From positions 1-57,468 of IMG/VR virus record IMGVR_UViG_3300023276_000855: a DNA stretch of 57,468 nt; one strand, given 5' to 3'. This DNA comes from a virus. Taxonomy: Duplodnaviria > Caudoviricetes. The notes beneath the pieces were generated by a model. That model did not search any database. It was given only the letters and a program-made list of their open reading frames with translations, and was not told the origin of the DNA. Each line of letters opens with the position of its first letter. Position 1 is the first letter of the stretch. A program made the position numbers and the translations under genes. Shown here one piece after another: positions 4,783-56,438 of the stretch.

Positions 4783-5286
4783 ATGAAAACACTCCAAGAA
4801 ATTTATAACTTCATCATTCCTACAATCTTTGAAAAGAATGATCAATGTACCAGCCAAGGCGGCTCATGTGTATATGACAACAAATTGAAAGATAGTCAAT
4901 GTTTAGTTGGACGCTGCATTCTTAAAGAACATAGAGGAACTGAGTATGAAGGGAGTGGACTTATACAAGTCACTGATTGGGATATGAAACATAATGAGAC
5001 TGAGTATAAAGGTTCTCTAAAGGAAGCATTATTCAAGTCAGGTATTGATACAGATGACGAAGATGTATATTCCCTCCTTGAAAACTTTCAATCCTTTCAT
5101 GATGATTATACTTCAGCAGGAGGTATGATGCTTAACTTTGATGAACCTCTTCATTTTGAGCAAGACATTGATTACCTAAAGACGATTGGTATCGAATTCA
5201 ATCTTGATGTATCAATTGTTGATAAATGCATCATTGCTAATACAGATAAGTATAGTGATGCTCTTAAAGAAACTTTCACAAAGTAA
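4783..5286 (+). CDS. hypothetical protein, paralogue of 10753..11265
   Basis: Shared C(V/F)Y...CLVGR.I...SGID.DD...L...Q.FHD pattern. Confidence 0.7.
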   Translation: MKTLQEIYNFIIPTIFEKNDQCTSQGGSCVYDNKLKDSQCLVGRCILKEHRGTEYEGSGLIQVTDWDMKHNETEYKGSLKEALFKSGIDTDDEDVYSLLENFQSFHDDYTSAGGMMLNFDEPLHFEQDIDYLKTIGIEFNLDVSIVDKCIIANTDKYSDALKETFTK

Positions 5287-5290
5287 TAAT

Positions 5291-5572
5291 ATGTTGACTA
5301 ATCTTACAGAAGAATTAAAAAATATCCAATTAGGTAGAGCCTATGGGTTTGAAGAAATGCAATTGGAAGACATAACACATTATAAATCTTACCTTAATAA
5401 GAAGATAGATCGATCAACATATGATGTGCATCTATGGAAATACAATGATCTCCTTCTTGCAGTTGTTAAGTGTAAAGAACCATACATTGAAGTATGTTAT
5501 GATGTGGAAGAACTCATTGTTGCAGGTGTGACTTGGGTGGATTGTTTAAAACGTAACGGGGAATTTAACTAA
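5291..5572 (+). CDS. hypothetical protein
   Basis: ATG 5291 within ORF 5186..5572. Confidence 0.6.
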   Translation: MLTNLTEELKNIQLGRAYGFEEMQLEDITHYKSYLNKKIDRSTYDVHLWKYNDLLLAVVKCKEPYIEVCYDVEELIVAGVTWVDCLKRNGEFN

Positions 5573-5573
5573 T

Positions 5574-6023
5574 ATGAAAGATTTAATTATTGCATCCATC
5601 AAGAAATGGAAAGATAGCGATGATATTGGCATAATGACAAACATTGAGGTTGAGGGTGTATATATTTGTAAGTATTTAAGAAATGAATATGTAAGTAACC
5701 CAACCAATAGGGCACATTGTATGGTTCATGGATGACCTGCCGTTATTGTATCTACAGTTGTGGATACTGATGAAGAGATGAATGCTGATTATGAAGTCTT
5801 GAATAGTTTTCCATATCAAGCATATCAATATGCCATTCAATATGTTTGGCATAAACACAACCCAATTAAATTGGGGGGAGATAGTATGTACTTTTCCAAC
5901 CTAAGAATTGAGAAAGGTAGAGAAAAGCTTATTAAGTTCTTTGAATCTCTTAATGAGGAAGAGTGGGATTATATTAAGAACGGAAGAAAGAAACTATTAA
6001 AGGATAGAACCGATGGAGAATAA
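5574..6023 (+). CDS. candidate selenoprotein A (149 aa, in-frame UGA at codon 54)
   Basis: Open from ATG 5574 to TGA 5733-5735 and in frame with ORF 5760..6023; SECIS-like hairpin at 5748-5767; paralogue at 6574 has the same arrangement. Confidence 0.7.
5748..5767 (+). promoter_or_regulatory. SECIS-like hairpin GTATCTAC-AGTT-GTGGATAC
   Basis: 8-bp stem with an AGUU loop, starting 12 nt after the in-frame UGA. Confidence 0.65.
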
Positions 6024-6570
6024 TATTATTAATAATCAAATGAGTCTGCAACAGATTCAAGATATCTTAAATGACCACACCAACATTATTACAATACATA
6101 ATAGTAATGAGGAACTGTTCAAAACTATGCGAGCCAATGATCTAATGGTTTGTGTGAATTCAGGCTATATATATCTAGCAGATCTTGATCTAGATAATAA
6201 ATATCCCATTGATGAATATAGAATTAGTTGGGGATTTACAACAATCAATGCTATTGAATCAGAAAGAAGAGATAGTTATAAACCATCAAGTGAACATTTT
6301 GTATTGGATAAGGAAGCAAGACAATGGAGAATGGTGTCAGGTGGGCATGATTGTGTATCATGTGGTGATATTGATATGGTATGGAAGGCAAACATTAAGA
6401 AAGTTGTCTTTGGTAGCTGGGAATTCACTAGGGATGATATTAATACCATGAAGCTTATGCATGATAGATTTGATATTAGTGTAGAAGACGAAGAACTGGA
6501 AGAACCCTCAACACATAGTGATGGATGCAATTGTACACATGATTGTAATTGTGACGATATACCTTTTTAA
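6013..6570 (+). CDS. hypothetical protein with Cys/His-rich acidic tail ending DDIPF
   Basis: 185-aa ORF. Confidence 0.65.
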   Translation: MENNIINNQMSLQQIQDILNDHTNIITIHNSNEELFKTMRANDLMVCVNSGYIYLADLDLDNKYPIDEYRISWGFTTINAIESERRDSYKPSSEHFVLDKEARQWRMVSGGHDCVSCGDIDMVWKANIKKVVFGSWEFTRDDINTMKLMHDRFDISVEDEELEEPSTHSDGCNCTHDCNCDDIPF

Positions 6571-6573
6571 GAT

Positions 6574-7002
6574 ATGGAAAAACTAATAAAAGAAGTAAAG
6601 GAACGTATTAAGAATACACTTGATACATGGACTGATGGTACATATGCAATCATTCGGGATGAAGTATTAACTAAGGAGTTATCAGTTGCAGGTTGCCCCC
6701 TAGGTATAACGCAAGATACAAGGGAATCCATCTTTGAAAAGGGATGACCAGCCATGATTATTCCAGCAGTTGTTGGAATTATGGATATTTCATATGTATC
6801 AAGTAGTTATCAAAATGCTATACAAGATCTATGGGAAGATAAAGGGTATAATGAAAATGATACATATGATGATTTTACATATGATGAGTATTCATACTAC
6901 TTCAGACTAACTACTCCAAAAGGTAGGGAACATCTACAAACATTCTTTGACTCCCTTACAGATGAAGAGTGGGTAACATTAATTAATACAAAGGAAAAAT
7001 AG
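6574..7002 (+). CDS. candidate selenoprotein B (142 aa, in-frame UGA at codon 58)
   Basis: Open from ATG 6574 to TGA 6745-6747 and in frame with ORF 6754..7002; SECIS-like hairpin at 6760-6779; shares G*PA, YQxAIQxxW and KGRExLxxFFxSLxxEEW with 5574..6023. Confidence 0.7.
6760..6779 (+). promoter_or_regulatory. SECIS-like hairpin ATTCCAGC-AGTT-GTTGGAAT
   Basis: 8-bp stem with an AGUU loop, 12 nt after the in-frame UGA; compensatory changes relative to the 5748 copy. Confidence 0.65.
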
Positions 7003-7200
7003 GAACTTTCAATTATTACTGAAAGTTTAGAAAGTTCAGGAAGTTTAGTAATAATTGGAAGTATAAATATATTAGGAAGTAATAGCAGGAAGCTATGTAG
7101 AAGCAGGGCTGGGAGTGTTTGGGTGGCTTAGTATTAATAAGAGATTCAAATGCTTTCTAGCCCTATAGAGAGAACGCAAAAGTAGACAGGTAATAAAGTA

Positions 7201-12550: not shown

Positions 12551-12922
12551 ATGTCTAAAGAAAATAAAGAAGTTGCAGTTGAAGTTGAAGTTCCAGTCGT
12601 TGCAGTTAAAAAGCAATATGCGGTGACTTGTTCACAAGCCACTAAGGAGATTCTTGATACCATCAAGAAAGATCACGATTTGCGTGGATCTGGTGAAGTG
12701 TTGGAAAACTTGATCGCTCTTGCTGAAAAGCATCCAGTCGATTTCAAAGCTCTTACGGAAGCAATGAACTCAAACCGTGTTAAAGCGGTCAAGGAGGCTA
12801 AAGACGATAAAACCTTGATTGCTGCGGCAGCTCTCATGGGAATGACTGTAGAGGCTCTTAAAGAGCTTCGAGCTGCCAACACGCAAAAAGCGAAAGAGAA
12901 TCCACCAGTCGCCTCTAAGTAG
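12551..12922 (+). CDS. early protein with possible ribbon-helix-helix DNA-binding fold
   Basis: ATG 12551; KQYAVTC strand then two predicted helices; higher GC than neighbours; own terminator. Confidence 0.6.
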   Translation: MSKENKEVAVEVEVPVVAVKKQYAVTCSQATKEILDTIKKDHDLRGSGEVLENLIALAEKHPVDFKALTEAMNSNRVKAVKEAKDDKTLIAAAALMGMTVEALKELRAANTQKAKENPPVASK

Positions 12923-15771: not shown

Positions 15772-17100
15772 ATGAAGAAGTTCATCAGTTTTGTAGTAGA
15801 AAAGAAGAAGTTTGGAAAGAGGAAAGATATTATACCCCTTTTCAAGTTCCCTATGTTTTCTGTATATGGAGATCGTAACCTTTCAGATGAGGAAGTCAAT
15901 GATATTCTCGCTGATGAAGAGAAATATAAAACCCTCTTTGCAAAGGCAAGAACTGCTATTGGTAAACTTGGATTCACTAAGATGCACGCCAACGTAGTTC
16001 TCAAAAACCTTTCAGAGAGTGTTAATAGGCTTACAGGTAAGAAGAATGGTGTTGGTGGATATGCATCAAGGAATGGTAAGTACATGACCCTAGCTACTAA
16101 CCACCTTCACCTAGATGAGAATATGATGAAGTCAGTAGAAGTTATTGTTCATGAATGGGCACACCTCTGGATGTTTAATAATAGTAAGTCGTTTAAGGAA
16201 GCTGTGAAGGAGGTGTTTGAGAAAGTCTTTGGGGGTCATTATAGTGAAACTAAATATAAAGAAGGAGATGAGCATGATGCAGAATCATTTTCTGATAAAG
16301 ATAGAAAGTTTGAAAACTTCTATAATAGTATTCTTGGTGATGAGATGACTACAAAGATCTACGATAATCTTATGTATGTTGCTGTGCAAGCCTTTGCAAC
16401 TAATGCTGATGCTCTTTGGGATGCATCTGACTTTGAAAGTTCGCCTTCTATCATATCGCAGGAAGAATTTGATGCCCTTGATGTGGTAAAACTTAAAGAG
16501 CTTGTCGTTCAGCAATTGGATCAATCTTTTAAAGAGTTTAATAGGAAGTTTGATGCAGAGATGCGAGGAAAAAGATACGCTCCTAAAAATGATGTTCCTT
16601 GGGAATTACCTAATCTTACAGTGGAAACTATGAAGACTGATGGTGATCCTGATATGAATAAGATCGTTAATGATATTGTAGAGAACCTACATTATGTTAT
16701 TGGTAATGTTGTAGGTGATTCTGAAAGCCATAAGCAGGATGCGAAATGGGCAGAGAATGATGGAGAGGAATATCCTCCAATTGATGTAGATGATATCATG
16801 ACTACTCAGATGCAGGATAACTCTGCATACAGAGGTGCGTATGGCGATAACATATATAATCTACAATACGCCATGTATCATTCCTATAGAGATGCATGGG
16901 CGAAATATGATGCTATTGAAAACAACTCTGATCCATATAAAACCAAAAAGAAAGGTCATCTTGCAAAACTTTACGATTGGCAAGGGGGAGGATATGGTCT
17001 ATCTAACTCAGATGAATTTTGGGCAACTGCCATTGATTCATTTATTAAGATGAAACCTGCCTATAAGAAAGAGATCATTAAGTTGATGCGACAACGATAA
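15772..17100 (+). CDS. putative virion-internal zincin metallopeptidase
   Basis: HEWAH plus a distal DEFWA motif; N-terminus MKKFISFVVE; late promoter. Confidence 0.7.
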   Translation: MKKFISFVVEKKKFGKRKDIIPLFKFPMFSVYGDRNLSDEEVNDILADEEKYKTLFAKARTAIGKLGFTKMHANVVLKNLSESVNRLTGKKNGVGGYASRNGKYMTLATNHLHLDENMMKSVEVIVHEWAHLWMFNNSKSFKEAVKEVFEKVFGGHYSETKYKEGDEHDAESFSDKDRKFENFYNSILGDEMTTKIYDNLMYVAVQAFATNADALWDASDFESSPSIISQEEFDALDVVKLKELVVQQLDQSFKEFNRKFDAEMRGKRYAPKNDVPWELPNLTVETMKTDGDPDMNKIVNDIVENLHYVIGNVVGDSESHKQDAKWAENDGEEYPPIDVDDIMTTQMQDNSAYRGAYGDNIYNLQYAMYHSYRDAWAKYDAIENNSDPYKTKKKGHLAKLYDWQGGGYGLSNSDEFWATAIDSFIKMKPAYKKEIIKLMRQR

Positions 17101-30701: not shown

Positions 30702-30792
30702 TGGCGAAAAGAAGAGGGTTCGAACCCCAAGGCATATTATACCTCCCTTTGATTAGCAATCAATGACAAACACCAAGTCTGCATTTCTTTCC
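30702..30792 (-). tRNA. tRNA-Ser(GCT)
   Basis: Loop TTGCTAA, long variable arm, GTTCGAA, GCCA end. Confidence 0.85.
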
Positions 30793-30801
30793 TTATATTG
30801 T

Positions 30802-30890
30802 TGGAAGAAGGCGGGGCTACGATTCCCAAGGCATATCATACCTCCATCTGGTTTCAAAGCAGAGACAACCACTAAGTTGCATCACCTTCC
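30802..30890 (-). tRNA. tRNA-Ser(TGA), divergent
   Basis: Loop TTTGAAA, long variable arm, atypical T-loop, TCCA end. Confidence 0.75.
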
Positions 30891-30985: not shown

Positions 30986-31074
30986 TGGCGAAATATAGAG
31001 GTCTTGATCCCCAAGGCTATAAAACCTCCATCTAATTTCCAATTAGAGATAGTCACTTAACTATTTTATATTTC
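30986..31074 (-). tRNA. tRNA-Ser(GGA), divergent
   Basis: TCTAA-TTGGAAA-TTAGA, long variable arm, GCCA end. Confidence 0.8.
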
Positions 31075-35583: not shown

Positions 35584-37539
35584 TTACACTAGGTTGCCTA
35601 ATGATAGAGTCTTAATAGTACCTGCATCATTGTAATCCATGTATACTGCAACTCCATCAACTCGGAAGGATTTCATCCCAACTGCTAATGTTCCATCAAC
35701 TTCATAACCTGCCGCCAATGCACTTGCTGTTGGTGCTGTTGCAGTGTCTTTGACTGTCTCTGCTACCATACCATCACCATGAATACGAACTGATCCACCA
35801 CGAACAGTGGTGCTTGACCAGTAACCATGCTCTTGACAGTTATTGATAGCTACTTGGATGCTTCTTCCTCCTGCTACTGAATAATCACCACTAACTGTAG
35901 AAGCTTTACCACTAGCTGTAGAATAATTACCACTAGCTGTAGAACCACTACCACTAGCTGTAGAATAAGTACCACTAGCTGTAGAACTATAACCACTAGC
36001 TGTAGAATAATTACCAATAGCTGTAGAATAATAACCACTAGCTGTAGAATAATTACCAATAGTTAAAGAACTTTGACCACTAGATGTGGAAAAAATACCA
36101 CTAGCTGTAGCACCAGCACCACTAGCTAAAGAATAATCACCACTAGCTACGGAACCATAACCACTAGCTGTAGAATAATTACCACTAGCTGTAGAAGCTT
36201 TACCACTAGCTACAGAATAATTTCCCCAAGCTTTTGAATCTTTACCACTAGCCACTGCATGGTCACCCTTTTCAACTGTTGGGTTTGCTGGGTTGTGTGT
36301 TACTGCGCCATCACCACTAGCTATAGAATGATAACCACTAGCTGTAGAAGCTTTACCACTAGCTGTAGAATGCTCACCGATTGCATCAGAACCACTACCA
36401 CTAGCTGTAGAATAAGTACCACTAGCTGTAGAACTATAACCACTAGCTGTAGAATAATTACCAATAGTTAAAGAACTTTGACCACTAGATGTGGAAAAAA
36501 TACCACTAGCTGTAGCACCAGCACCACTAGCTAAAGAATAATCACCACTAGCTACGGAACCATAACCACTAGCTGTAGAATAATTACCACTAGCTGTAGA
36601 AGCTTTACCACTAGCTACAGAATAATTTCCCCAAGCTTTTGAATCTTTACCACTAGCCACTGCATGGTCACCCTTTTCAACTGTTGGGTTTGCTGGGTTG
36701 TGTGTTACTGCGCCATCACCACTAGCTATAGAATGATAACCACTAGCTGTAGAAGCTTTACCACTAGCTGTAGAATAAACACCACTAGCTGTTGAGGCAC
36801 TACCACTAGCTGTAGATTCATCGCCAATAGCATTAGAACCCCAACCACTAGCTACAGAATGAAAACCACTGGCTGTGGAACCATTACCACTGGCTGTAGC
36901 ATAATTCTGACTAGCTGTAGAGCCAAGACCACTAGCTATAGAAGCAGTGCCACTAGCTGTACCACCGAATACTGACACACCATTATTAGTTGCGTCCCAT
37001 ACATCACCTGTGTTAGTGCCACTTGTGTTAGCTAGTCGATTCTCATCAGCGAGTGGATAAGATCTTTTTGCGGTGTTTAAACCTATGGCAGAGTTTTGTG
37101 TGGTCTGCTCCGATTGTAGATCACCTACATCGGTTCCAAGTTGCCCAATGTCCCCTTCGATGGCTGATAAATCTTGATCGCCTGTGTTAGTACCACTTTG
37201 ATTACTTAAATTTGTTTTTTCACTATCTGTGAATGCATTAGTGTTAGCATTATTTTCATAAGCTGTTTTGATTTGTGCGTCTGTTTGATCACCAGTAGCA
37301 CCAGATTCAATGGTGTCTAGTTTGGTCTTATCCCCATCTTGAAATGCACCTTCTGAAGGCTTTACTTGTAGTGCTGAGAGGTCTTGATCGCCTGTGTTAG
37401 TACCAGATTGATTAGCTACTACTGCGGTATTTGCAGAAACCTCTGATATAATAGTACCTAAATCAATACCCTCCCTAAACTCTTGTCGCTGAGATGCGCT
37501 TAGGGATGGAAGATATTCCGTTATGAAGAATTTGGACAT
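35584..37539 (-). CDS. trimeric fibre protein with YadA/Hep-Hag-like head repeats
   Basis: Dozens of STASGxY heptads; SGTNTGD repeats; late promoter. Confidence 0.8.
   Translation of the reverse strand: MSKFFITEYLPSLSASQRQEFREGIDLGTIISEVSANTAVVANQSGTNTGDQDLSALQVKPSEGAFQDGDKTKLDTIESGATGDQTDAQIKTAYENNANTNAFTDSEKTNLSNQSGTNTGDQDLSAIEGDIGQLGTDVGDLQSEQTTQNSAIGLNTAKRSYPLADENRLANTSGTNTGDVWDATNNGVSVFGGTASGTASIASGLGSTASQNYATASGNGSTASGFHSVASGWGSNAIGDESTASGSASTASGVYSTASGKASTASGYHSIASGDGAVTHNPANPTVEKGDHAVASGKDSKAWGNYSVASGKASTASGNYSTASGYGSVASGDYSLASGAGATASGIFSTSSGQSSLTIGNYSTASGYSSTASGTYSTASGSGSDAIGEHSTASGKASTASGYHSIASGDGAVTHNPANPTVEKGDHAVASGKDSKAWGNYSVASGKASTASGNYSTASGYGSVASGDYSLASGAGATASGIFSTSSGQSSLTIGNYSTASGYYSTAIGNYSTASGYSSTASGTYSTASGSGSTASGNYSTASGKASTVSGDYSVAGGRSIQVAINNCQEHGYWSSTTVRGGSVRIHGDGMVAETVKDTATAPTASALAAGYEVDGTLAVGMKSFRVDGVAVYMDYNDAGTIKTLSLGNLV
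36031..36776. repeat. about 340-bp apparently identical direct repeat, period 405 bp, inside the fibre gene
   Basis: 36031-36371 matches 36436-36776. Confidence 0.85.
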
Positions 37540-54580: not shown

Positions 54581-55198
54581 TTATTGTACATCGAATACTA
54601 CATAGTCATAACTACCATCTTCGTTGTGGCGTATACCTATATTCTCACAGTGAGAATCTGTATGTGCGACTCCAATATTACCTAGTTCACTAAGACCCCA
54701 AGAAATATCATCAGCAAACTTTAACTCTTCGTCATCTAACCCATCCTCTTCCTGATCATAATAATTATCACGCCAATCGGGTGATTTTTCCGACAATGAT
54801 TGTTCAATGGTGCATATATCCTCAGTAATATCTAATAATTCGGTCACATATGCATTATGTTCCTCTGACACATCAAATATATTGGCTACATTGGCAAATT
54901 TTCTCCTAGACTCTCTAATCTTAATTGCTGAATACATTTCCTCGTCAGAACTCGTCAATTTAACAACATAATCCTTTCCTCCAAAATTCACTAAGAATGC
55001 TGTACCCCAATGTCCACTTCCTATATCGGAAGCTCCTTCATAATCCATTTCAAAATCGTCATATTCTTCGTCAGACATAGCATCCACTTTGCCTTTAATA
55101 TTTTCATCAGCAATACCTAATTTAGCAAGAACCTCTAATTCATGCTTTACTGAATCGAATTCCCTATACTCGAATATATATTTCTTAAATGATTTCAT
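54581..55198 (-). CDS. protein-kinase-like fold protein with capsid-targeting-like N-terminus
   Basis: IGSGHWG, VVKLT, HTDSHCEN, FD; starts MKSFKKYIFE. Confidence 0.65.
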   Translation of the reverse strand: MKSFKKYIFEYREFDSVKHELEVLAKLGIADENIKGKVDAMSDEEYDDFEMDYEGASDIGSGHWGTAFLVNFGGKDYVVKLTSSDEEMYSAIKIRESRRKFANVANIFDVSEEHNAYVTELLDITEDICTIEQSLSEKSPDWRDNYYDQEEDGLDDEELKFADDISWGLSELGNIGVAHTDSHCENIGIRHNEDGSYDYVVFDVQ

Positions 55199-56367
55199 TA
55201 TCCTACGAAAATCCCGATAGGTTCTGAATCACCAAATCCAGCACTTGGACCATCTAGCATTAATTCTTCTAATCTTTCCTTCTCTTGCAAACCTTCATTA
55301 AGTACAAGTTCACCATTTAAAGTTCCAGATCCTGGCAAAGATACATTTGAAATCTTTGTAAGTATGCGACCCCAAGTAATCTTAGTAAGAGCTAATGCAT
55401 ATTGATATACCCAAGGTTCTTTAATAATATCTCTAATTGGTCTTTCAACATAACATGAAATTACTCCCCAATATCTTGTATCTTTTGGTTGTGGATAGAG
55501 TTTTAAGTATTGAGTTCTCTGATCAAAATGTGTTTCTTTCTTGAGGGCAAGCACTTTTTCTCGTGTTTCTTGCCACTCTTTCATAGTATTCCACGATACT
55601 AGATCAAATCCAAAATTACCCATTGCATGACTGAAGAATGTTTGTTGAGCCATTGATTGCTCCATTGTGAATAGCGTATTAATACCTGTTGTAGATCCTT
55701 CATCAAACTCTTTAACTGCAATAACCTTTCTATATTCCATTGTATCGTAGTCAAATGCATTATTATATACCTCTACATCTTCCGCAACAGCACCTTCTTT
55801 AGTAATAGTTGTTTGTCCTGCCTTCTGGAAGCTGGCTGATAATGCTGGTAGATATTCAGTGATGTCTGTATAAACATCTCCTCCAATAATATCCATTTTA
55901 GGTATACCATTCTCTGGAATCACAGCACTTAGGGCTGAACTAGCAGTAAAGTCGCTATATTCGATAGGAGTTGTCACAACATACACTTCATTGGTATTAT
56001 CAATGGAAAAGTCGGGATTATTGCGAATTGTGGGGTCTTTTGCTAGTCTTTGGGCTGGTGTGAACCCAGTATTGGCTACTGTGAATAGGTGATCTAAACG
56101 AATTCCTCTATTCTTTTCATATAAATTACTATCAAATACTAAGTATTCCTCAGTATACCCTGCAAATTTAGTAAAAAATTCCATAGAAATACTAATATTT
56201 TCATACAATCCTTCAGGGTGTACCTCTACATTAATGGATGGATGTCCCAAACTATACAAAATTCGTTGTCCAAGGGCTTGAAAACTCTCAATTTTTGAGT
56301 TTAAGTTTGTGGATTGGAATGCGCTTATAGGTTTTACTTCGCACAGGTTACTATCATGAAGACTCAT
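55198..56367 (-). CDS. gp13: neck protein
   Basis: LGHPSINVEV, W..QYALALTK..WG..L.K, LPG..LNG. Confidence 0.85.
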   Translation of the reverse strand: MSLHDSNLCEVKPISAFQSTNLNSKIESFQALGQRILYSLGHPSINVEVHPEGLYENISISMEFFTKFAGYTEEYLVFDSNLYEKNRGIRLDHLFTVANTGFTPAQRLAKDPTIRNNPDFSIDNTNEVYVVTTPIEYSDFTASSALSAVIPENGIPKMDIIGGDVYTDITEYLPALSASFQKAGQTTITKEGAVAEDVEVYNNAFDYDTMEYRKVIAVKEFDEGSTTGINTLFTMEQSMAQQTFFSHAMGNFGFDLVSWNTMKEWQETREKVLALKKETHFDQRTQYLKLYPQPKDTRYWGVISCYVERPIRDIIKEPWVYQYALALTKITWGRILTKISNVSLPGSGTLNGELVLNEGLQEKERLEELMLDGPSAGFGDSEPIGIFVG

Positions 56368-56438
56368 ATGCATTATTTAGCATTTTACACTCACAACATC
56401 AAGTGATAGCTATTAAATAGTATTAATAACATCACACC

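Follow-up and report, generated by a model that had tools for sequence, protein, structure and literature searches.

Can a stop codon inside two neighboring genes of a bacterial virus be decoded as an amino acid, and, if so, as which one? The question is raised by a stretch of 57,468 bases from an uncultured virus (IMG/VR record IMGVR_UViG_3300023276_000855, positions 1 to 57,468), here called the window, which is estimated to be 27% complete, with ∼73% of the genome lying outside it. Between positions 5574 and 7002, two paralogous genes are each interrupted once by an in-frame UGA, and each UGA is followed at the same distance by a small hairpin. A first-pass annotation, made from the sequence alone, had proposed the pair as candidate phage selenoproteins. 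We tentatively favor selenocysteine (Sec) insertion directed by SelB together with a SECIS (Sec insertion sequence) at both UGAs, and we weigh this reading against several others.

Two paralogous genes share one in-frame UGA

The two frames and their stops are as follows.

5574 to 6023, plus strand: paralog 1, full read-through frame, 149 codons plus a TAA stop
5574 to 5735 (53 amino acids) and 5760 to 6023 (87 amino acids), plus strand: paralog 1 as it appears in database gene calls
5733 to 5735, plus strand: in-frame TGA of paralog 1, codon 54, in the context GGA TGA CCT GCC
6574 to 7002, plus strand: paralog 2, full read-through frame, 142 codons plus a TAG stop
6574 to 6747 (57 amino acids) and 6754 to 7002 (82 amino acids), plus strand: paralog 2 as it appears in database gene calls
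6745 to 6747, plus strand: in-frame TGA of paralog 2, codon 58, in the context GGA TGA CCA GCC

As the first-pass annotation had it, both frames begin directly after the preceding gene: a TAA at 5570 to 5572 lies ahead of the ATG at 5574, and a TAA at 6568 to 6570 lies ahead of the ATG at 6574. The claim of a single interruption at an equivalent GGA-TGA-CCN-GCC also stands, the sole internal stop of each frame being the TGA at 5733 to 5735 in GGATGACCTGCC and the TGA at 6745 to 6747 in GGATGACCAGCC. No half of either paralog holds an additional stop or a frameshift.

Does TGA have another meaning throughout this phage? It terminates 17 other open reading frames (ORFs) in a greedy list of 99; several of these end in ATGA overlaps, and one encodes a lysozyme-like protein matched in Pfam. 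As the earlier statement had it, TGA acts as a normal stop in the rest of the window. The genes for the capsid, ribonucleotide reductase (RNR), thymidylate synthase (ThyA), and other structural and nucleotide metabolism proteins contain no internal TGA; only the two paralogs are interrupted, and theirs are the only TGAs in the window that have long open stretches on both sides within coding frames. One extended frame on the minus strand, which contains a TGA at 12675, was examined and rejected as antisense noise. A reassigned TGA, similar to the code 4-like recoding of late genes, was rejected because TGA stops other ORFs and only two coding frames are interrupted. Within the window, which covers ∼27% of the genome, no tRNA with the UCA anticodon of a suppressor turned up, even at relaxed thresholds.

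The immediate surroundings of the two stops are unusual. Both read UGA-C, whereas C occupies the position after TGA in only 1 of the 17 other TGA-ended ORFs; UGA-C is a weak termination context. The Ala codon two positions after the TGA (5739 to 5741 and 6751 to 6753) is GCC in both copies, a codon chosen for only 7% of the Ala residues that the window's long ORFs encode. This shared rare codon suggests a constraint at the nucleotide level.

The read-through proteins are paralogous (BLASTP E = 1e-11 if the site is written as C and 5e-10 if it is written as X). Their alignment starts nine residues ahead of the stop and extends to the C terminus, with 33% identity over 104 columns, and the residues that follow the stop, P-A-[VM]-I-[VI], align between the copies. 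Both proteins contain the motifs YQxAIQxxW and KGRExLxxFFxSLxxEEW and at least one upstream Cys (C32 and C49 in copy 1; C41 in copy 2), as had been reported. Nucleotide identity between the paralogs has three peaks, of which the site is one (0.73 in an 11-codon window versus 0.52 overall) and the two protein motifs are the others. The TGA must be older than the duplication and must have been retained while two thirds of the residues changed.

Coding potential extends over both sides of the stop. A codon model was trained on 39 long ORFs of the window and expressed as a score per codon; the N-terminal halves, read in the frame of the C-terminal halves, score 0.25 and 0.31, compared with 0.335 ± 0.149 for the training set, about −0.44 for the off-frames, and −0.26 for the noncoding gap at 7003 to 7200. 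The N-terminal half and the C-terminal half score as coding in one frame in both copies.

A side observation concerns the architecture of the proteins. MAFFT placed an N-terminal-half variant of paralog 2 (P0016) onto the C-terminal KGRE...FFxSLxxEEW block. An internal repeat in the family is possible because the N-terminal helix K-E-R-I-K-N-T-L-D-T-W-T-D loosely resembles this motif.

A covarying hairpin lies at a fixed distance from each UGA

The hairpins occupy the following positions.

5748 to 5767, plus strand: hairpin 1, with its 5' arm at 5748 to 5755, AGUU loop at 5756 to 5759, and 3' arm at 5760 to 5767
6760 to 6779, plus strand: hairpin 2, with its 5' arm at 6760 to 6767, AGUU loop at 6768 to 6771, and 3' arm at 6772 to 6779

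Hairpin 1 reads GTATCTAC-AGTT-GTGGATAC, and hairpin 2 reads ATTCCAGC-AGTT-GTTGGAAT. The spacer between TGA and hairpin is exactly 12 nucleotides in both, each stem has 8 pairs, one of them G-U, and the loop G is the 22nd nucleotide after the TGA. The predicted element, an 8-bp stem with an AGUU loop 12 nucleotides past each TGA, is therefore present in both copies. Folded alone, the hairpins have free energies (ΔG) of −8.2 kcal/mol (hairpin 1, with a centroid at −9.4) and −8.3 kcal/mol (hairpin 2). Compared with shuffled sequences, the surrounding 61-nucleotide stretches reach z-scores of just −1.26 and −2.02. No bulged nucleotide or conserved lower stem is common to both copies.

The two stems differ in sequence, and pairing, loop, and spacing are kept, which bears out another of the earlier claims. 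Between the copies, three of the eight stem pairs are invariant, one has changed on one side, and four have changed on both sides. Pairing is preserved in all 16 cells (100%); when the 3' arm is slid by 1 to 3 columns, this value falls to 19 to 56%, and no double changes remain. The arms code for VST and IPA in one copy and for VDT and VGI in the other, which means that pairing was preserved at a cost to the peptide. On the opposite strand, the G-U pairs would turn into A-C mismatches, indicating that the structure belongs to the mRNA. We conclude that the hairpin is under selection as RNA.

The association of hairpin and stop is more than chance. A degenerate 32-nucleotide pattern of the site has two matches in the window, both at these sites, with 0 expected from 100 shuffles; hairpins of the same type number 22 on the plus strand of the 57 kb. 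What is conserved is the spacing between UGA and hairpin. The possible restart codons are an ATG 6 nucleotides ahead of hairpin 2 and a GTG within the 3' arm of hairpin 1, so that the spacing from hairpin to restart codon varies. An Rfam search of the site returned no SECIS or other relevant family; bacterial SECIS elements are poorly covered by Rfam.

The stop in the available variants

Contigs from three of the four sequencing runs compared cover the first TGA and hairpin 1 and are 96 to 100% similar to the window. They show no listed difference at 5718 to 5781, although the flanks differ; one difference, in a contig from an RNA library, is unlisted. The second TGA and hairpin 2 are covered by one contig, for which one difference is likewise unlisted. 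Some runs left parts of the stretch uncovered, and no conclusion is drawn from this.

Database gene calls extend this comparison. The calls for the N-terminal half end at the same Gly on 10 contigs for paralog 1 and on 5 contigs for paralog 2, and the variant P0016 of the latter, in which 8 of 57 residues are changed and which is found on 5 contigs, ends there as well. Protein variants of the C-terminal half with 83 to 90% identity (P0014 and P0015) all begin with MIIPAVVGIMD, a peptide coded by the hairpin. Variants with 83 to 86% protein identity, known here from protein calls alone, are likewise divided at that residue.

Both sites are spanned by contigs of a marine metatranscriptome library made with oligo-dT (X11; window positions 5490 to 5778 and 6646 to 6786). 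They are compatible with transcription and are not proof of it, because DNA can occur in RNA libraries.

Both hairpins fit the bacterial SECIS model

Do these hairpins resemble the signals that direct Sec insertion in bacteria? In the available text of a 2026 review of prokaryotic selenoproteomes (PMC13188914), the bacterial SECIS (bSECIS) model has a loop of 3 to 9 nucleotides, an upper stem of 4 to 16 bp, a ΔG of −7.5 or lower, a G in the first two loop positions that is mostly followed by G or U, and a distance of 16 to 37 nucleotides from UGA to loop. Another description, in the accessible part of PMC4605307, gives a stem of 6 to 8 bp and a conserved loop G ∼20 nucleotides past the UGA. 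In both copies, the loop has 4 nucleotides and the stem 8 bp, the loop is A-G-U-U, and the UGA lies 20 nucleotides from the loop (a 12-nucleotide spacer plus the 8-nucleotide arm); the energies are those given above, and each frame has one TGA with both sides scoring as coding. Both hairpins fall within every bSECIS constraint, and SelB binding is predicted.

A bSECISearch-type scan had been suggested as a check. We used a simplified filter of this type and counted a TGA as a candidate if an ATG-initiated ORF of 40 codons or more lay upstream of it and 40 or more open codons lay downstream; two complete genomes of related phages (G001 and G002) served as controls. The filter passes 2 of 8 candidates in the window, both of them the sites described here, 0 of 51 in G001, and 1 of 56 in G002. 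Among all TGA trinucleotides, regardless of coding context, it passes 16 of 2,426 in the window, 89 of 9,519 in G001, and 112 of 9,615 in G002. The passing TGA of G002 (159069 to 159585, minus strand) was rejected as an ordinary stop: a terminator-like hairpin of 12 bp comes after it and then, in frame with it, a new gene that has its own ATG. It illustrates a false positive of the filter.

SelB/SECIS-directed Sec insertion at both UGAs is, in our estimate, the most likely single mechanism, with a probability of roughly 0.4. By this mechanism, the single UGA of each gene would be decoded as Sec, and the 8-bp/AGUU hairpin 12 nucleotides downstream would act as a bacterial-type SECIS, bound by host SelB carrying Sec-tRNA(Sec) and positioned at the mRNA entrance of the ribosome when the UGA is in the A site. 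The full-length product would have ∼145 amino acids and a G-U-P-A site, and failed insertion, with termination, would yield a product of 53 to 57 amino acids. A redox role of Sec together with an upstream Cys (C-x4-U in copy 1) may be supposed.

Homologs, Sec machinery, and host

Several observations weigh against Sec, and they are gathered here. Some concern the site itself. The bSECIS constraints are loose, and the observed covariation is matched by 30 of 500 shuffles, a test that is weak because there are only two independent sequences. Compared by themselves, the N-terminal halves show only slight similarity (BLASTP E = 0.10). The only full-length database entry, P0013 (window positions 6574 to 6999; 142 amino acids), comes from a 670-bp ENA contig and has W at the site, being otherwise identical to paralog 2 of the window. 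We think that this W results from a gene call with code 4 on a short AT-rich contig; it may also be a real TGG allele.

The family is also isolated. The first-pass annotation had looked to homologs with Cys at the site, or with a conserved TGA plus hairpin, for support, and tBLASTn and protein searches found none outside near-identical contigs; there is no Cys homolog because there is no homolog of any kind beyond these contigs. Among 1.84 billion representative proteins, there were just two matches and no more distant relatives; searches of 5.8 billion clusters returned 1 and 7 matches, all of them near-identical halves and none among longer fused proteins. In 50,697 phage records, tblastn detected no relatives (one match had an E value of 0.3), and blastn yielded nothing of use. 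The family is absent from all five related phage records searched, two of which are complete. Viral contigs yielded no useful relative with either protein or with a degenerate DNA pattern allowing TGN at the site, and metagenome contigs yielded none with the paralog alignment or the degenerate pattern. Nearly all known selenoproteins have Cys homologs, according to the available text of PMC13188914.

Neither paralog belongs to a Pfam or PHROG family, and a PDB sequence search gave no match below an E value of 0.15. AlphaFold models are all-helical and of low to moderate confidence, with predicted local distance difference test (pLDDT) scores of 53.4 and 66.8, and place the site in a low-confidence linker (pLDDT < 50) between helical parts. 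In a Foldseek comparison with the PDB, the best E value was 2, with template modeling (TM) scores of at most 0.25, and no known or redox fold was recognized.

Neither a tRNA-Sec (UCA) above the cutoff nor selB turned up in the window or in any of four related phage records, in searches that did not extend to selA and selD. For the window, this agrees with the earlier remark that no tRNA-Sec is visible, here after tRNA searches that included relaxed thresholds. The relaxed searches recovered three Ser-type tRNA genes that had been missed at default thresholds (30706 to 30792, 30803 to 30890, and 30990 to 31071, minus strand), with anticodons GCU, UGA, and GGA, each with a long variable arm and none of them UCA. 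Two of these Ser-type tRNAs score best against the Rfam tRNA-Sec model, at 34.9 and 23.9 bits with a cutoff of 47. At relaxed settings, ARAGORN draws the GCU and GGA tRNAs with acceptor stems of 8 bp and T stems of 4 bp; 8/4 tRNA-Ser genes have already been described in phages (PMC5389517).

Which host would have to supply the machinery? Shine-Dalgarno motifs are rare ahead of the phage genes (3 strong ones in 46 starts), a typical feature of Bacteroidota-like hosts, few of which use Sec. On the side of Sec, the accessible part of a preprint (10.64898/2026.04.03.716425) reports Sec machinery in all 84 complete genomes of the marine genus Actinomarina, so that Sec is used within the marine plankton; it also reports 135 Pelagibacter genomes without selC. 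An abundant class of candidate hosts could thus not insert Sec. With Actinomarina having the machinery and Pelagibacter lacking it, the Sec hypothesis hangs entirely on the plankton lineage that is infected. Genome contigs scanned with the capsid protein in search of the host gave no match. The one match to the tRNA variable-arm pattern, in a 16-Mb metagenome-assembled genome (MAG), was rejected: it falls on a ribosome-binding-site and start region between two ORFs on a contig with 40% GC, and it is treated as a chance match because the MAG contains neither the family nor the capsid gene.

The earlier proposal of candidate selenoproteins therefore stands in part: its anatomy and the fit to all bSECIS constraints hold, and no Cys homolog, tRNA-Sec, or selB was found to back it.

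Alternative explanations

What else could account for a conserved stop with a conserved hairpin? Each locus may consist of two small cistrons, an N-peptide of 53 to 57 amino acids and a C-protein of 82 to 87 amino acids, with no recoding at all. The hairpin would then be a translational operator or coupling element that hides or flanks the downstream start until a protein binds or until an upstream ribosome terminates and reinitiates. Hairpins that hold start codons are known phage translational operators, such as the MS2 replicase operator and the T4 late-gene hairpins, and nearly all database gene calls, P0013 being the exception, are two ORFs broken at the same place. Paralog 2 offers an ATG 6 nucleotides past its TGA, preceded by GGGA, and paralog 1 offers an in-frame GTG in the 3' arm of its hairpin; the low-confidence linker in the models and the weak similarity of the N-terminal halves also speak for separate cistrons. 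However, the type and position of the restart codon differ between the copies, whereas the distance from stop to hairpin is identical, and the two halves share one frame in both copies. CCN GCC and P-A-[VM]-I-[VI] are kept even though 8 codons would be untranslated in paralog 1. Moreover, a hairpin that starts 12 nucleotides past the stop would still be intact while a ribosome pauses there. The UGA-C shared by both stops likewise speaks for recoding. We regard two cistrons as an unlikely explanation, albeit one to be taken seriously.

The evidence from frame, coding potential, and covariation applies equally to programmed readthrough without SelB, in which the hairpin would stimulate low-level decoding of a leaky GGA-UGA-C, either through a near-cognate tRNA for Trp or Cys or through a suppressor tRNA encoded in the ∼73% of the genome outside the window. 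The short product would predominate and the extended one would be minor, as with the A1 protein of phage Q-beta. The shared UGA-C, rare at the other stops, is in keeping with this, as are the tRNA-Trp (CCA) and tRNA-Cys (GCA) genes of the window and the W of P0013; in Sindbis virus, a single C after the UGA is the readthrough signal, as stated in the available text of PMC7026636, which also calls the mechanism of programmed readthrough unclear. The literature found on hairpin-stimulated readthrough consists of reviews of eukaryotic-virus cases only. No example from bacteria or phages of readthrough stimulated by a downstream hairpin is known to us, and the geometry of the hairpin is SECIS-like. 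A general opal suppressor would also read through the 17 other TGA-ended ORFs, and no other gene in the window has an in-frame TGA in its coding frame. SelB-independent readthrough is, in our judgment, improbable.

Bypassing of the type seen in T4 gene 60, with takeoff at the GGA before the stop and landing on a GGA in the 3' arm of the hairpin, is suggested by the T4-like nature of the phage, by N-terminal frames that end in GGA-stop after 53 to 57 codons, and by the presence of GGA in both 3' arms (5762 to 5764 and 6775 to 6777). The GGA of paralog 1 is out of frame, however, and is followed by a TGA two codons on, so that landing would be productive in paralog 2 only; the hairpin starts 12 nucleotides past the stop and does not include it, and the codons to be skipped, P-A-[VM]-I-[VI], look conserved at the protein level. 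Bypassing thus has very little to recommend it. A +1 frameshift was rejected, since the +1 frame stops after 15 codons. A stop codon inside a frame may also betray pseudogenes or an assembly error, and this we consider next to negligible. The same stop occurs in paralogs that are 33% identical and show no other lesion, which excludes a pseudogene, and the codon model rates the sequence on either side of it as coding; contigs from independent runs contain the stop, and the split calls recur on 5 to 10 contigs for each paralog.

The phage and neighboring genes

The window has a GC content of 32 to 38%. Its head genes are of the T4 type, with a Pfam Gp23 match (E = 1e-81) and a T4-like scaffold protein, and RNR, ThyA, and a tRNA cluster are also encoded. 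Among cultured phages, the nearest capsid-type protein is 32% identical; in IMG/VR, uncultured relatives that share ∼70% capsid identity abound (185 pattern matches, 180 of them confirmed; 80 were retained). The stretch from 5300 to 7100 is present in seawater and marine metagenome runs of 21 studies, 5 of them RNA libraries. The source is an uncultured marine T4-like phage, as follows from the T4-type head genes, the distant cultured relatives, and the seawater and marine runs.

6013 to 6570, plus strand: unrelated 185-amino-acid gene between the paralogs, with no family match; given for context only

The protein of this intervening gene has a Cys-rich C terminus ending in a C-N-C-T-H-D-C-N-C stretch. 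Together with another small neighbor (4783 to 5286), it is Cys-rich and has no Pfam or PHROG match.

A CTAAATA- or TATAAA-like motif lies within ∼10 nucleotides upstream of many starts, for example, those at 15772, 17115, 35584 to 37539 (minus strand), and 55198 to 56373 (minus strand). It resembles T4-type late promoters, and if the motifs served as such, the leaders would be very short. The gene at 35584 to 37539 (minus strand) encodes a 651-amino-acid protein with 13 stretches of YadA-head repeats (Pfam E = 1e-45), which is probably a virion fiber or adhesin.

Known systems and significance

How does the locus compare with known recoding? Like bacterial SECIS elements, best studied in the formate dehydrogenase genes of Escherichia coli, it combines an in-frame UGA with a small hairpin within the coding sequence, here with an 8-bp upper stem and a 4-nucleotide loop with G-U at positions 2 and 3. 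Unlike them, it is encoded by a phage, in a family that has no Cys homolog or recognized fold. Selenoproteins of eukaryotic viruses, such as the glutathione peroxidase homologs of poxviruses, are eukaryotic-type genes with a SECIS in the 3' untranslated region; the likeness lies in a virus gene that relies on the Sec machinery of its host. Q-beta is an RNA phage in which Trp is inserted by near-cognate decoding, with no downstream hairpin at a fixed distance known to be involved. Its coat/A1 gene resembles the two genes described here in that a UGA would give a short and, if read through, an extended product; the accessible text of PMC7026636 describes this UGA as partly read through, with a short major and a longer minor product. 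In the same text, T4 gene 60 begins with 46 codons, followed in turn by a GGA for takeoff, a stop, a stem-loop, and a GGA for landing. The locus here has in common with it the T4-type phage, a brief first ORF whose end is GGA-stop, and a nearby stem-loop; the differences are that the frame here continues past the stop, that the hairpin does not contain the stop, and that the landing codon is in frame in one copy only.

We found no phage selenoprotein in print, which agrees with the first-pass annotation, to which no characterized example was known; the available text of PMC13188914 does not contain the words phage, virus, or viral. The mechanism, bacterial SECIS recoding, would be a known one; what would be new is its operation in a phage and in an orphan family that lacks a Cys form. 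Our tentative picture is of a lytic marine T4-like phage with two orphan, mostly helical selenoprotein paralogs (G-U-P-A) whose private SECIS would recruit host SelB and Sec-tRNA in the course of infection. The gene pair is a candidate that may be the first phage selenoproteins and a good target for bench tests.

If this is true, these would be the first selenoprotein genes, and the first Sec recoding, in a bacterial virus. The phage would write its own SECIS and borrow the SelB of its host; the host range of a marine phage lineage would be narrowed to Sec-competent bacteria, and selenium would be a nutrient relevant to phages. The two proteins would also form a new selenoprotein family without a Cys form, invisible to methods that rely on Sec/Cys pairs. 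If, instead, SelB-independent readthrough or control of two cistrons is at work, the locus would still pair a stop codon of a T4-like phage with an RNA signal that is conserved and covaries.

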